Source: Escherichia coli
GTDB taxonomy: Bacteria; Pseudomonadota; Gammaproteobacteria; Enterobacterales; Enterobacteriaceae
NCBI RefSeq assembly: GCF_030013205.1
Contig: NZ_CP122648.1
DNA length: 64,000 nucleotides
Strand: one strand, 5' to 3'
Shown: positions 41,736 to 47,774 of the stretch, piece by piece
How the letters are laid out: the number at the start of each line of letters is the position of its first letter
Numbering within the stretch: the stretch's first letter is position 1
Program-made: the position numbers and the translations under genes
Notes under the pieces: model-generated
Told to the model about the DNA's origin: nothing
Database searches by the model: none
What the model saw: the letters and a program-made list of their open reading frames with translations, nothing else

Positions 41736-43292
41736 ATGACAAGTATTCAACAACGAGCAGAACTGCACCGCCAGATATGGCAAATTGCCAATGATGTCAG
41801 AGGTTCTGTTGACGGATGGGATTTTAAGCAATACGTTCTGGGCGCACTTTTCTACCGTTTTATCAGCGAAAATTTTTCCAGTTATATTGAAGCCGGTGAT
41901 GACAGCATCTGTTATGCGAAACTGGATGACAGCGTAATTACTGATGACATTAAAGACGATGCCATCAAAACCAAAGGCTACTTCATCTACCCAAGTCAGC
42001 TTTTCTGCAACGTAGCTGCGAAAGCAAATACCAATGACAGACTGAATGCAGATTTAAACAGCATCTTCGTTGCTATCGAAAGTTCTGCTTACGGCTACCC
42101 TTCAGAAGCAGACATCAAAGGTTTGTTTGCTGATTTCGATACCACCAGTAACCGCCTGGGTAACACCGTTAAAGATAAAAATGCCCGCCTGGCTGCGGTT
42201 CTGAAAGGGGTTGAAGGGTTAAAACTTGGTGACTTCAACGAACATCAGATTGACCTGTTCGGTGATGCCTATGAGTTCCTGATTTCTAACTATGCCGCGA
42301 ATGCCGGTAAGTCCGGCGGCGAGTTCTTTACACCGCAGCACGTCTCTAAGCTGATTGCACAACTGGCTATGCACGGGCAGACCCACGTTAACAAAATATA
42401 CGACCCGGCAGCAGGTTCCGGTTCGCTGTTGTTGCAGGCTAAAAAACAGTTCGATGACCACATCATCGAAGAAGGCTTTTTCGGTCAGGAAATCAACCAT
42501 ACGACCTATAACCTGGCGCGTATGAACATGTTTTTGCACAACATCAACTACGACAAGTTTGATATCAAGCTGGGCAATACGCTGACTGAGCCGCACTTCA
42601 GAGATGAAAAACCGTTTGATGCCATCGTTTCTAACCCGCCGTATTCGGTGAAATGGATTGGCAGCGATGACCCGACGCTGATTAACGATGAACGTTTTGC
42701 CCCGGCTGGCGTTCTGGCCCCCAAATCCAAAGCTGACTTTGCGTTTGTATTACATGCGCTGAACTATCTTTCTGCCAAAGGTCGTGCTGCGATTGTTTGC
42801 TTCCCGGGTATTTTTTACCGTGGCGGCGCGGAGCAGAAAATCCGTCAGTATCTGGTTGATAATAACTATGTCGAAACCGTGATTTCACTGGCACCGAATC
42901 TGTTCTTTGGCACCACCATTGCCGTAAACATTCTGGTGCTGTCTAAACATAAAACGGATACCAAAGTTCAGTTTATTGATGCCAGCGAACTGTTCAAAAA
43001 AGAGACTAACAACAACATTCTGACCGATGCCCATATAGAAAAAATTATGCAGGTATTTGCCAGCAAGGAAGATGTTGCTCATCTGGCGAAATCTGTCGCG
43101 TTTGAAGCCGTTGTCGCGAATGACTATAACCTGTCAGTGAGCAGCTATGTGGAAGCGAAAGATAACCGCGAAATTATCGATATTGCTGAGCTGAATGCAG
43201 AACTGAAAACTACGGTTAGCAAAATCGACCAGTTGCGTAAAGATATTGATGCGATTGTGGCTGAAATTGAAGGCTGCGAGGTGCAAAAATGA
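41736..43292 (+). CDS. hsdM: Type I restriction-modification system DNA methyltransferase subunit HsdM (type IC, EcoR124-like)
   Basis: 518 aa; AdoMet motif [10 protein letters not shown] and N6-adenine catalytic motif NPPYS; HsdM N-terminal domain. Confidence 0.9.
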
Positions 43293-44536
43293 GCGAGTTG
43301 AGTTATCTGGAAAAATTGCTGGATGGGGTTGTGGTTGAGTGGAAAACCCTTGAGGATATTTCTATAAAGATATCATCTGGAGGAACCCCTAAAACTGGCG
43401 TATCAGAATTTTATGATGGCGACATTCCTTGGTTGCGAACTCAAGAAGTAAACTTTTGTGATATATGGGATACCGAGGTAAAAATAACTGAGTCTGGAGT
43501 TAAAAACTCTAGTGCAAAATGGATACCAAAGAATTGTGTCATTGTTGCTATGTATGGGGCAACTGTGGGGAAAATCGGCATAAACAAAATTCCAATGACA
43601 ACAAATCAAGCGTGCGCAAATATTCAACTTAATGAAGAAGTTGCTCATTATAGATATGTATTTCACTTCTTGTGTAGCCAATACACATATATCAAATCCC
43701 TTGGAACAGGGTCCCAGACAAACATAAATGCGCAGATTGTCAAAAATATTAAGATCCCCATCCCCTGCCCAGAAAACCCGGAAAAATCCCTTGCCATCCA
43801 GTCTGAAATCGTTCGGATTCTGGACAAATTTACTGCACTTACCGCTGAGCTTACCGCTGAGCTTAACATGCGTAAAAAACAGTACAACTACTATCGCGAC
43901 CAGTTGTTGAGTTTTAAAGAGGGTGAGGTTGAGTGGAAAAGTCTGGAAGATATTGCTTTATTTAGACGGGGTTCATTTCCACAGCCATATGGAAATAGTG
44001 AATGGTATGATGGAGAAGGTTGCATGCCTTTTGTTCAGGTAGCTGATGTGGCTGATTCAGGATTTACATTACACACAAAAACCAAACAACAGATTTCTAA
44101 GATTGCACAAAGCAAGAGCGTTTTTGTTGAGGCTGGAACAATTGTTGTGACACTGCAAGGTACTATTGGTCGAGTAGCAATAACACAGTACGATTGTTAT
44201 GTGGATAGAACTCTTGCAATATTTACTAACTTTAAAGTAAAAATAAACAAAAAATACTTTGCTTATCAACTAAAAGCTAAATTCGATTCAGAGAAAGAAT
44301 TTGCAAGAGGAAGTACTTTGAAGACAATTACAAAAGAAGAGTTTTCTAAGTTCCAATTACCTCTTCCCTCAATAAACGAACAAAATCGTATAGTATCACT
44401 ATTGGATAAGTTCGATACACTGGCTCATTCAATAAAACAAGGTCTCCCGCGTGAAATCGAGTTGCGCCAGAAACAATACGAATACTACCGTGATTTACTG
44501 TTCAGTTTCCCGAAACCTGAAACTGCCAGTAATTAA
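43289..44536 (+). CDS. hsdS: Type I restriction-modification specificity subunit HsdS (two target-recognition domains)
   Basis: 415 aa; ATGA overlap with hsdM; conserved central and C-terminal repeats ([14 protein letters not shown] / [15 protein letters not shown]); TAEL-TAEL spacer. Confidence 0.88.
43841..43864 (+). repeat. Tandem 12-bp repeat ACCGCTGAGCTT x2 encoding TAEL-TAEL in the hsdS central spacer
   Basis: Read directly from sequence; same repeat class whose copy number sets spacer length in EcoR124I/EcoR124II. Confidence 0.85.
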
Positions 44537-44657: not shown

Positions 44658-47600
44658 ATGACTCATCAGACACACACCATTGCTGAATCCAATAACTTTA
44701 TCGTTCTTGATAAGTACATCAAAGCTGAGCCAACAGGCGACAGCTACCAGAGCGAATCGGACCTGGAACGTGAACTGATTCAGGACCTGCAAAATCAGGG
44801 TTATGAATTTATTTCCGTAAAATCACAGTCGGCAATGCTATCCAATGTTCGGGAACAGCTTCAGAGCCTCAATGGTGTGATGTTTAATGACAGCGAGTGG
44901 CGGCGCTTCACGGAGCAGTATCTGGACAACCCCAGCGATGGTATTCTGGATAAAACCCGTAAAATCCATATCGACTATATCTGCGACTTTATTTTTGACG
45001 ACGGGCGACTTGAGAACATCTATTTGATAGATAAAAAGAATCTCATGCGCAATAAGGTGCAGATTATCCAGCAGTTTGAACAGACGGGTTCTCATGCTAA
45101 CCGTTATGACGTCACGATCCTGGTTAATGGTTTACCGCTGGTGCAAATCGAACTAAAAAAACGCGGGGTGGCGATTCGTGAGGCTTTCAACCAGATACAT
45201 CGTTACAGTAAAGAGAGTTTTAACAGCGAAAATTCCCTGTTTAAGTATCTGCAACTGTTTGTCATTTCTAACGGCACCGATACCCGTTATTTTGCCAACA
45301 CGACAAAGCGCGATAAAAACAGTTTTGACTTCACCATGAATTGGGCGAAATCAGACAACACGCTGATTAAAGACCTCAAAGACTTTACCGCTACCTTTTT
45401 CCAGAAACATACTCTGCTGAATGTTCTGGTGAACTACAGCGTTTTTGACAGTAGTCAGACGCTACTGGTGATGCGACCGTACCAGATTGCCGCCACCGAG
45501 CGCATTCTGTGGAAAATTAAGAGTTCCTTTACAGCGAAGAACTGGTCAAAACCGGAAAGCGGTGGGTATATCTGGCACACTACCGGTTCTGGTAAAACCC
45601 TCACCAGCTTTAAAGCCGCGCGTCTGGCAACAGAGCTGGACTTTATTGATAAAGTCTTCTTTGTGGTCGACAGGAAAGACCTCGATTACCAGACCATGAA
45701 GGAATATCAGCGTTTTTCGCCAGACAGCGTCAACGGCTCGGAAAATACCGCAGGCCTTAAACGAAATCTGGATAAGGACGATAACAAAATTATCGTCACT
45801 ACTATTCAGAAACTCAATAACCTGATGAAAGCAGAAAGCGACCTGCCTGTATATAATCAGCAAGTGGTGTTTATATTTGATGAATGCCACCGCAGCCAGT
45901 TTGGAGAAGCGCAGAAAAACCTGAAGAAGAAATTCAAACGCTATTATCAGTTTGGTTTTACCGGCACCCCTATTTTCCCGGAAAACGCCTTAGGCTCAGA
46001 AACAACCGCCAGCGTATTTGGTCGTGAATTGCATTCGTATGTAATTACCGATGCGATTCGTGACGAAAAAGTGCTCAAATTCAAAGTGGACTACAACGAT
46101 GTGCGGCCACAGTTTAAGTCTTTAGAGACAGAAACTGACGAGAAAAAACTAAGTGCGGCTGAAAATCAGCAGGCGTTTCTTCATCCCATGCGTATTCAGG
46201 AAATCACGCAATATATTCTGAATAATTTCCGCCAGAAAACTCACCGTACCTTCCCTGGCTCAAAAGGTTTTAATGCTATGTTGGCAGTGAGCAGCGTGGA
46301 TGCCGCGAAAGCCTATTATGCGACGTTTAAACGGTTACAAGAAGAAGCCGCTAATAAATCGGCTACCTATAAACCGCTGCGTATTGCGACAATCTTCTCC
46401 TTTGCCGCCAATGAAGAACAAAATGCCATTGGTGAAATTTCCGATGAAACTTTTGATACCAGCGCAATGGACAGCAGTGCTAAAGAGTTTCTGGACGCTG
46501 CAATTCGTGAATATAACAGCCATTTTAAAACTAACTTTAGCACCGACAGTAACGGTTTTCAGAACTACTATCGTGATTTAGCCCAGCGGGTTAAAAATCA
46601 GGATATCGATCTGCTAATTGTCGTGGGGATGTTTTTAACCGGCTTCGATGCTCCAACATTGAACACGCTATTCGTCGATAAAAACTTGCGTTTTCACGGC
46701 CTGATGCAGGCATTTTCCCGCACCAACCGTATTTATGATGCAACTAAAACCTTCGGTAATATCGTCACTTTCCGGGATCTGGAACGCTCAACTATTGATG
46801 CCATAACGCTGTTTGGTGATAAAAACACCAAAAATGTGGTGTTAGAAAAGAGTTATGCTGAGTATATGGAAGGCTTTACTGATGCTGCTACTGGTGAAGC
46901 TAAACGCGGCTTCATGACAGTAGTTTCAGAACTGGAACAACGGTTCCCTGACCCTGCCAGTATTGAAAGTGAAAAAGAGAAGAAAGACTTCGTTAAACTG
47001 TTTGGCGAATACCTGCGTGCCGAGAACATCCTGCAAAACTATGATGAATTTGCCACGCTAAAAGCCCTGCAACAAATCGATCTTAGCGATCCTGTTGCGG
47101 TAGAAAAATTCAAAGCAGAACATTATGTGGATGATGAAAAGTTCGCTGAATTGCAAACAATTCGTCTCCCTGCTGATCGCAAGATTCAGGATTATCGTTC
47201 TGCCTATAACGATATTCGCGACTGGCAGCGCCGTGAGAAAGAAGCTGAGAAAAAAGAGAAATCAACCACTGACTGGGATGACGTAGTTTTTGAGGTCGAT
47301 TTGCTGAAGTCTCAGGAAATAAACCTGGATTATATCCTTGGACTGATTTTCGAACACAACAGACAAAATAAAGGCAAGGGCGAAATGATCGAAGAGGTCA
47401 AACGCTTAATTCGTTCAAGCCTGGGGAACCGTGCTAAAGAGGGCCTGGTGGTCGATTTTATTCAGCAAACGAACCTGGATGATTTACCGGACAAAGCCAG
47501 CATCATTGACGCATTCTTTACGTTTGCTCAACGCGAACAGCAACGTGAAGCAGAAGCCTTGATCAAAGAAGAAAATCTCAATGAAGAGGCGGCGAAACGC

Positions 47601-47774
47601 TATATTCGCACATCTTTAAAACGCGAATACGCCACCGAAAATGGCACGGAATTAAACGAGACACTGCCCAGACTCAGTCCTTTAAATCCGCAATATAAAA
47701 CGAAAAAACAGACTGTTTTTCAAAAAATTAGCGCATTTATTGAAAAATTTAAGGGGGTGGGTGGAAAGATTTAG
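44658..47774 (+). CDS. hsdR: Type I restriction enzyme endonuclease/translocase subunit HsdR
   Basis: 1,038 aa; Walker A TGSGKT and DEAD-box variant FDECHRSQ; good ribosome-binding site; follows hsdMS. Confidence 0.9.

Follow-up and report, generated by a model that had tools for sequence, protein, structure and literature searches.

The 64,000-nucleotide stretch of Escherichia coli DNA analysed here (contig NZ_CP122648.1; hereafter, the window) carries a three-gene type I restriction-modification (RM) operon, hsdM-hsdS-hsdR, on its plus strand. We read this locus as an intact type IC operon that is cargo of a CP4-like genomic island next to tRNA-Ser(GGA), in a lineage associated with pigs, and that would act by an EcoR124I-like mechanism with a recombinant specificity. 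We put the probability of this reading at about 85%. The specificity gene hsdS is a recombinant of two alleles that already circulate in E. coli: its first target recognition domain (TRD) is that of an IncF plasmid and its second TRD is that of a chromosomal allele. The operon is a new allele, with a new combination of TRDs, of a very well-known family, and its mechanism adds nothing new.

The operon and its methyltransferase and restriction subunits

The three genes are plus-strand open reading frames (ORFs) with zero internal stops. hsdM (41736-43292, ATG to TGA) encodes the N6-methyladenine (m6A) DNA methyltransferase subunit of 518 amino acids; hsdS (43289-44536, ATG to TAA) encodes the specificity subunit of 415 amino acids; and hsdR (44658-47774, ATG to TAG) encodes the restriction and translocase subunit of 1038 amino acids. 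hsdM and hsdS overlap by 4 bp (ATGA), and hsdS and hsdR are separated by 121 bp. The integrity of these ORFs and the phmmer matches with E = 0 that are described below are far beyond chance. The G+C content of the operon is 43-44%, versus about 50-55% in its flanks, which is expected for acquired DNA.

Type I RM systems consist of M (a gamma-class N6-adenine methyltransferase), S (two TRDs with conserved helices between them), and R (a PD-(D/E)xK nuclease joined to a superfamily 2 translocase). The profiles and motifs for M, S and R were all found in the locus, and PADLOC gave full-length matches for the type I methyltransferase, specificity and restriction endonuclease subunits. The criteria that first set the type IC family apart were complementation between subunits, hybridisation and cross-reaction of antibodies; its archetype is EcoR124I, which is encoded by the plasmid R124 and has the target GAAN6RTCG. 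The window's operon has the type IC gene order (M-S-R on one strand, with hsdM and hsdS as one overlapping unit), and its HsdS has the family's conserved regions at the N terminus, in the centre (with the TAEL repeats) and at the C terminus. As a sequence proxy for relatedness, we used full-length identity to EcoR124I, which is 99.2% for HsdM and 98.6% for HsdR. Judged by its sequence, the locus is an intact type IC (EcoR124 family) RM operon, and we expect it to be active.

We compared the proteins to all PDB chains with phmmer. HsdM aligns to residues 3-520 of the EcoR124 HsdM chain 7bst_D with 4 substitutions (E = 0). It also matches NCBIfam TIGR00497 with 651 bits (cut-off 243) and contains the S-adenosylmethionine motif DPAAGSG (residues 223-229) and the catalytic motif NPPY (residues 300-303). 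The PDB chain has 520 amino acids, versus 518 for the window's protein and, according to RefSeq, for the plasmid versions as well. The window's HsdM has 518 amino acids because the second ATG is used; the first ATG is absent in this chromosomal lineage. At 41725-41738 (plus strand) there is a 5-bp insertion, GATTA, relative to the plasmid type IC modules, and E. coli strain 165 (NZ_CP020509.1) has the same insertion. It removes the upstream in-frame ATG, so that the window has TTA AAA ATG where the plasmids have ATG AAA ATG (a Met-Lys-Met start), and it gives rise to a mini-ORF of two codons, ATG GAT TAA, which stops 2 nt upstream of the hsdM ATG.

HsdR aligns from end to end (1-1038 to 1-1038) with the EcoR124I HsdR structure 2w00, with 15 substitutions (2282 bits, E = 0), and it matches the NCBIfam hsdR model with 767 bits (cut-off 285). 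The residues D151, E165 and K167, which form the PD-(D/E)xK catalytic site (Loenen et al. review, PMC3874165), are all present. Also present are GSGKT (310-314), DECH (408-411), TGTP (435-438) and QAFSRTNR (684-691). The Pfam domains HSDR_N, ResIII/SWI2_SNF2, T1R_D3-like and the family-specific EcoR124_C (model positions 1-260 of 260) are all full-length. At several positions where HsdR departs from the crystallised protein (T143, F247, F679, A734 and A766), it agrees with the versions from plasmid pIP1206 (NC_010558.1) and strain 165, so these changes belong to the ordinary natural variation within the family.

These results bear out the initial annotation of this DNA, which had proposed a complete EcoR124-like type IC system in the order hsdM-hsdS-hsdR with all three subunits intact: the exact coordinates, the profile matches and the near-identity to the EcoR124 subunits agree with the first point, and the lack of internal stops and the complete catalytic motifs and Pfam domains agree with the second. 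It had also given 518 and 1,038 amino acids as the lengths of HsdM and HsdR in EcoR124I. The length of HsdR matches 2w00, but 518 is the RefSeq call for HsdM and the PDB chain is two residues longer.

The near-identity to EcoR124I is our reason for proposing the same mechanism. HsdS and two HsdM subunits would form the M2S1 methyltransferase, which would methylate an adenine to m6A in each of the two strands of a bipartite target. Addition of HsdR would yield R1M2S1 and then R2M2S1. At an unmethylated target, the complex would stay bound while it pulled in the flanking DNA, driven by ATP, and would cut at a distance via the D151/E165/K167 site.

A recombinant hsdS, its predicted target and its distribution

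HsdS is arranged as a first TRD of type A (TRD1[A]), the central conserved region, a second TRD of type B (TRD2[B]), and the C-terminal conserved region. It has two Pfam Methylase_S domains (residues 17-192 and 215-391) and matches the PADLOC Specificity_I profile over positions 1-417 of 417. Its match to the HsdS of EcoR124 is restricted to the N-terminal, central and C-terminal conserved regions (the conserved blocks are at residues 1-11, at LTAELTAEL in 184-192, and at 388-402; the central and C-terminal blocks score 127 and 100 bits). Both TRDs differ from those of EcoR124I, so the DNA target differs as well.

TRD1[A] (43331-43756, plus strand, about residues 15-156) is identical to TRD1 in the HsdS proteins of pIP1206 and of the ST131 plasmid pMB9877_1. 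TRD2[B] (43928-44380, plus strand, about residues 214-364) is identical to TRD2 of the chromosomal HsdS of strain 165, whose own TRD1 is that of EcoR124I, based on an alignment with a subunit that UniRef names EcoR124I/II (P0204). The residues that distinguish the parental types imply that the crossover was inside the central conserved region. We propose that hsdS would have arisen when a crossover in this region joined a pIP1206-type TRD1, from an allele with three repeats, to the TRD2 of strain 165. The central region also contains the spacer ruler TAEL TAEL (43838-43861, plus strand), which is encoded by two perfect tandem copies of the 12-bp sequence CTTACCGCTGAG; relatives have about 1, 2 or 3 of these repeats. 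A natural type IC HsdS allele with about one TAEL repeat and 398 amino acids occurs in Salmonella (contig L008, 4001-5197, and protein P0133), so that the family range is at least 1-3; an allele of this kind implies a spacer that is one bp shorter than EcoR124I's.

With TRD2[B], the HsdS of strain 165 and TRD1[A] as queries, our protein database searches found hundreds of relatives (distinct type IC HsdS alleles, 381-424 amino acids long), among which EcoR124I/II (P0204) was the sole name of a characterised enzyme, with no EcoprrI or EcoDXXI entry. The window's system shares with EcoR124I the gene order, the two TAEL repeats, the conserved regions of HsdS, the catalytic motifs and the domain architecture. 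Besides both TRDs, the two systems differ in that EcoR124I is on a plasmid, has a different sequence upstream of hsdM, and has the two extra N-terminal residues of HsdM in the PDB chain, whereas the window has an insertion sequence (IS) directly after hsdR. The IncF plasmid pIP1206, whose system is of the RM.EcoST101IX / Eco067II type, has the identical TRD1 and a conserved hsdS-hsdR gap, with 7 substitutions in HsdM and 20 in HsdR; in contrast to the window, its HsdS is TRD1[A], three TAEL repeats and TRD2[C], and it is plasmid-borne and flanked by Phd/Doc and IS1. Strain 165 shares with the window its TRD2, the region upstream of hsdM, a CP4-like island, and a module in which a YeeP-like GTPase gene and hsdMSR are followed by ISKpn26, which abuts the hsdR stop. 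Unlike the window, it has the EcoR124I-type TRD1 (which reads GAA), three TAEL repeats, intact island neighbours, and an island end at tRNA-Ile instead of tRNA-Ser(GGA). EcoR124II, EcoDXXI and EcoprrI have the same family architecture, but they have four more central residues (8 bp between adenines) and different TRDs. In the EcoprrI locus, the anticodon nuclease gene prrC is inserted. We ruled out a layout of this type for the window, as the hsdS-hsdR gap has only 121 bp and contains no ORF of at least 60 amino acids.

There are two known routes to a new type IC specificity, namely a change in the number of repeats and the exchange of TRDs by recombination in the central region (PMC12707154), and both are visible in the window's hsdS. 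Type IC targets are bipartite and asymmetric. EcoR124I has 7 bp between the methylated adenines, and family members whose central region is four residues longer have 8 bp (PMC12707154, Table 1; a 2025 EcoSal Plus review). RM.EcoST101IX, which is reported to have 100% nucleotide identity to the pIP1206 system, methylates CC(m6A)GN6RTTG (bioRxiv ST101 study). In an independent study of ST131, the loss of an IncF plasmid with a type I methyltransferase abolished CCAGN6RTTG methylation. This motif has 8 bp between its adenines and the HsdS of pIP1206 has three repeats, so the spacer rule holds. Plasmid-borne S genes of type IC size from Klebsiella have the motifs AACN5RTGC and GATGN6TTG, that is, 7 or 8 bp between adenines (Klebsiella study). 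The same study reported TRDs with 100% matches to enzymes of known motif for all but one of its assigned S subunits. The methylome paper for the ST131 strain EC958 does not cover this system because pEC958 has only an orphan methyltransferase.

Since the window's HsdS has two TAEL repeats, we predict that 7 bp lie between its methylated adenines and that it recognises 5'-CCAG-N5-(half-site read by TRD2[B])-3'. Because either strand can be used to write a type I motif, CAAY rather than CCAG might be the half-site of TRD1[A]; if the published motif runs in the opposite direction along HsdS, then the target would be CAAY-N5-(half-site read by TRD2[B]). By the same rule, CCAGN5RTTG would be expected for an ST131-plasmid allele that combines TRD1[A], two repeats and TRD2[C], and GAA-N7 followed by the TRD2[B] half-site for strain 165. 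We also considered the motif GAAN7RTAC from S. Senftenberg as the target of an enzyme with a GAA-type TRD1, three TAEL repeats and TRD2[B]. This link is unproven and we did not use it; the only Salmonella relative that we found (P0133) has fewer repeats.

To see where this allele occurs, we surveyed 5,426 complete E. coli genomes. At least 80% of a 6.4-kb query that covers the locus is present in 1,057 of them, and the locus has matches in more than 5,000 plasmid records, most of them Klebsiella or Escherichia. The DNA segment for TRD1 is in 361 genomes, with 336 of its 365 places on plasmids, and the segment for TRD2 is in 35 genomes. The whole hsdS is in 15 genomes; all of these copies are chromosomal and all of the genomes are from pigs. 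The named carriers are K_EC180, ten strains of enterotoxigenic E. coli (ETEC), the two O139:H1 strains W13-16 and P15-25, EC556, EC571 and EC581. Across the 6.4-kb locus, K_EC180, ETEC1748 and ETEC4079 have 100% identity. In a large protein collection, the exact HsdS protein is on 148 contigs.

The two perfect 12-bp tandem repeats, along with natural alleles that have about 1, 2 or 3 copies, would also suit a locus that is mainly an epigenetic system for switching specificity, in which the gain or loss of a repeat toggles N5 and N6, as in EcoR124I versus EcoR124II. However, the identical two-copy allele is present in 15 of the 15 carrier genomes, two copies of a 12-bp repeat are a poor substrate for slippage compared to true phase-variable tracts, and we saw no sign of a regulatory role, which leaves this idea exceedingly improbable.

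More tentatively, and at somewhat short of even odds, we suggest that TRD1[A] with two TAEL repeats and TRD2[B] makes an experimentally uncharacterised specificity that arose by recombination between an allele frequent on IncF plasmids and a chromosomal one, that in complete genomes is confined to one pig lineage of ETEC and O139:H1 oedema-disease strains, and that acts as a lineage-specific barrier to plasmids and phages. If so, this chromosomal enzyme and the plasmid-borne type IC enzyme that is most widespread would have one half-site in common, but DNA that carries the plasmid enzyme's modification would still be foreign to the chromosomal one. Knowledge of the target would help explain which plasmids and phages enter the pig lineage. 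It would also make ETEC and oedema-disease E. coli from pigs easier to manipulate genetically, by pre-methylating plasmids or by using vectors without the motif, although this practical value is modest. As a natural case, the locus neatly illustrates TRD swapping and the number of 12-bp repeats as routes to specificity.

Island setting and control regions

The window is 99.98% identical to the chromosome of the pig E. coli strain K_EC180, and core genes (flg, murJ, pyrC, mdo, csg and ghrA) fill its first ~37 kb. We ruled out a plasmid origin for the window because of this match and because of the flanking core genes flg, mdo and csg. The core genes are followed by tRNA-Ser(GGA) (37415-37502) and then by an eroded CP4-like island, which has, in order, fragments of DUF4942 and DUF5983 genes, cbtA/cbeA, an "antirestriction" ORF, a truncated Ag43 gene, the YeeP-like GTPase gene, and hsdMSR. 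Downstream of hsdMSR are ISKpn26, a truncated hsdM that abuts a GmrSD_C fragment, an intact Hhe gene, and a cluster of ISs with a group II intron. Strain 165 also has this GTPase-hsdMSR-ISKpn26 module, in an island that is better preserved and has its end at a tRNA-Ile gene adjacent to mug, which implies that the module is island cargo. Homology to the plasmid-borne modules starts about 10-20 bp before the hsdM ATG and stops at the stop codon of hsdR.

ISKpn26 (IS5 family; 47775-48970, minus strand) lies directly after the TAG of hsdR, with inverted repeats at 47775-47790 and 48955-48970 and a transposase gene annotated by RefSeq. Its 4-bp flanks, TTAG on the left and CTAA on the right, do not form a direct repeat, and strain 165 has the same left junction but a different right flank. 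This suggests a later IS-mediated rearrangement.

Much of the island is eroded: its Ag43 gene and second hsdM are truncated, its antirestriction gene is a chimera, and IS elements are numerous. Given this, and given that the region upstream of hsdM does not resemble the plasmid archetype, the operon might be silent or decaying cargo that has yet to acquire disabling mutations like those of its degraded neighbours. We consider this to be very improbable: about 5.9 kb of coding sequence has no stop or frameshift, HsdM and HsdR have just 4 and 15 substitutions relative to the solved EcoR124 proteins, and the GTPase-hsdMSR-ISKpn26 module is intact in the unrelated island of strain 165.

Turning to the control regions, the sequences upstream of the chromosomal and plasmid copies of hsdM have diverged except for a single conserved island of 12 bp, TTGCTGTAGAAT (41681-41692, plus strand), which lies ~45 bp upstream of the hsdM ATG. 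A consensus scan did not report TTGCTGTAGAAT as a full sigma-70 site. Its TAGAAT (41687-41692) is a plausible -10 element and a candidate for the -10 of the hsdM-hsdS promoter.

A separate promoter for hsdR is known for type IC systems from work on EcoR124I. The hsdS-hsdR intergenic region (44537-44657, plus strand), which is largely conserved with pIP1206 and strain 165, contains a candidate hsdR promoter, a GC-rich hairpin, and the putative ribosome-binding site AAGGA. The candidate promoter, TTAACA-18-TATTTT at 44564-44593, comes from the consensus scan, whose results for the region as a whole are not above chance; the consensus scan for promoters and terminators gave nothing above chance. 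The hairpin (44600-44629, plus strand) has the stem arms GCCGGAAG and CTTCCGGC on either side of a 14-nt loop, and lies ~20 nt upstream of the ribosome-binding site of hsdR. Its local fold has a free energy of -22.2 kcal/mol (z = -2.5), and a diverged type IC locus from Salmonella (L008) has an unchanged stem and a loop that varies. It is not followed by a run of T and is therefore not an intrinsic terminator, but it might affect the expression of hsdR.

These features bear on another explanation, in which DNA is modified while restriction is weak or missing, so that the locus acts mainly as an orphan-like methyltransferase whose HsdR is poorly expressed or poorly assembled in the chromosomal context. 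The candidate promoter of hsdR is weak, with a scan that is not above chance, and a stable hairpin lies just upstream of the ribosome-binding site; furthermore, the plasmid-type 3' flank of hsdR has been replaced by an IS, and restriction by EcoR124I depends on the assembly from R1 to R2 (PMC12707154). Against this, HsdR has its full length and all of its catalytic and assembly domains are intact, and because the hsdS-hsdR gap, including the hairpin, is largely as in pIP1206 and strain 165, nothing about it is specific to the window's copy. We think that weak or absent restriction is unlikely.

Several points weigh against our reading of the locus as an intact operon with an EcoR124I-like mechanism and a recombinant specificity. 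The consensus scan found no strong promoter upstream of hsdM, and apart from the 12-bp block this region is unlike the plasmid archetype. The terminator-like hairpin that is found 3' of hsdR on pIP1206 is replaced here by ISKpn26. As the 15 carriers of hsdS are identical or nearly identical over the 6.4-kb locus, their conservation says little about selection. The choice of CCAG over CAAY for TRD1[A] is an assumption and is not proven: TRD2 of EcoR124I reads CGAY, and the likeness of TRD1[A] to that domain (31.5% identity) fits both. (TRD2[C] of pIP1206 resembles neither TRD of EcoR124I.) Literature searches for strings that correspond to candidate motifs turned up no usable published motif for TRD2[B]. 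Finally, the methylation and restriction activities of this allele are predicted from sequence.

In the core-gene part of the window, mdoC (opgC; 26126-27283, plus strand) is an intact ORF of 385 amino acids, while RefSeq marks a frameshift in K_EC180. The few indel differences between the window and K_EC180 may be errors in the K_EC180 assembly.

Neighbouring defence genes

The initial annotation had also placed the operon next to a decayed second system and an antirestriction-like gene, and had described it as the sole defence system in the window that appeared to be functional. The decayed system is there, with ISKpn26 between it and hsdR. This remnant of a second type I locus (49164-51471, plus strand) is an hsdM fragment that abuts a GmrSD_C/DUF1524 fragment. 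The hsdM fragment (49164 to about 50135) scores 129 bits against the NCBIfam model, which is below the cut-off, and covers positions 4-324 of 515 in the profile; no hsdS or hsdR accompanies it. The adjacent fragment has only the C-terminal GmrSD_C/DUF1524 nuclease domain (Pfam PF07510).

An antirestriction-like ORF (38883-39413, minus strand) does exist, about 2.3 kb upstream of the operon, but it is a deletion chimera rather than an intact gene. It matches only positions 1-37 of 92 in the Pfam Antirestrict model. In a BLASTP comparison with an intact island homologue of 161 amino acids, only residues 14-107 aligned (96% identity): the N-terminal ~105 residues have been kept, while the C-terminal ~68 residues are unrelated to the homologue. 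The JAB/RadC and DUF987 genes that usually follow are absent. RefSeq annotates this ORF as intact in K_EC180.

The operon is not the only full-length defence locus in the window. Hhe, an anti-phage DUF4011 helicase/nuclease of 1915 amino acids, is encoded at 51646-57393 (plus strand). It matches the NCBIfam equivalog model with 2738 bits (cut-off 2000) and the PADLOC profile over positions 1-1911 of 1911, and it is apparently a second intact defence gene.

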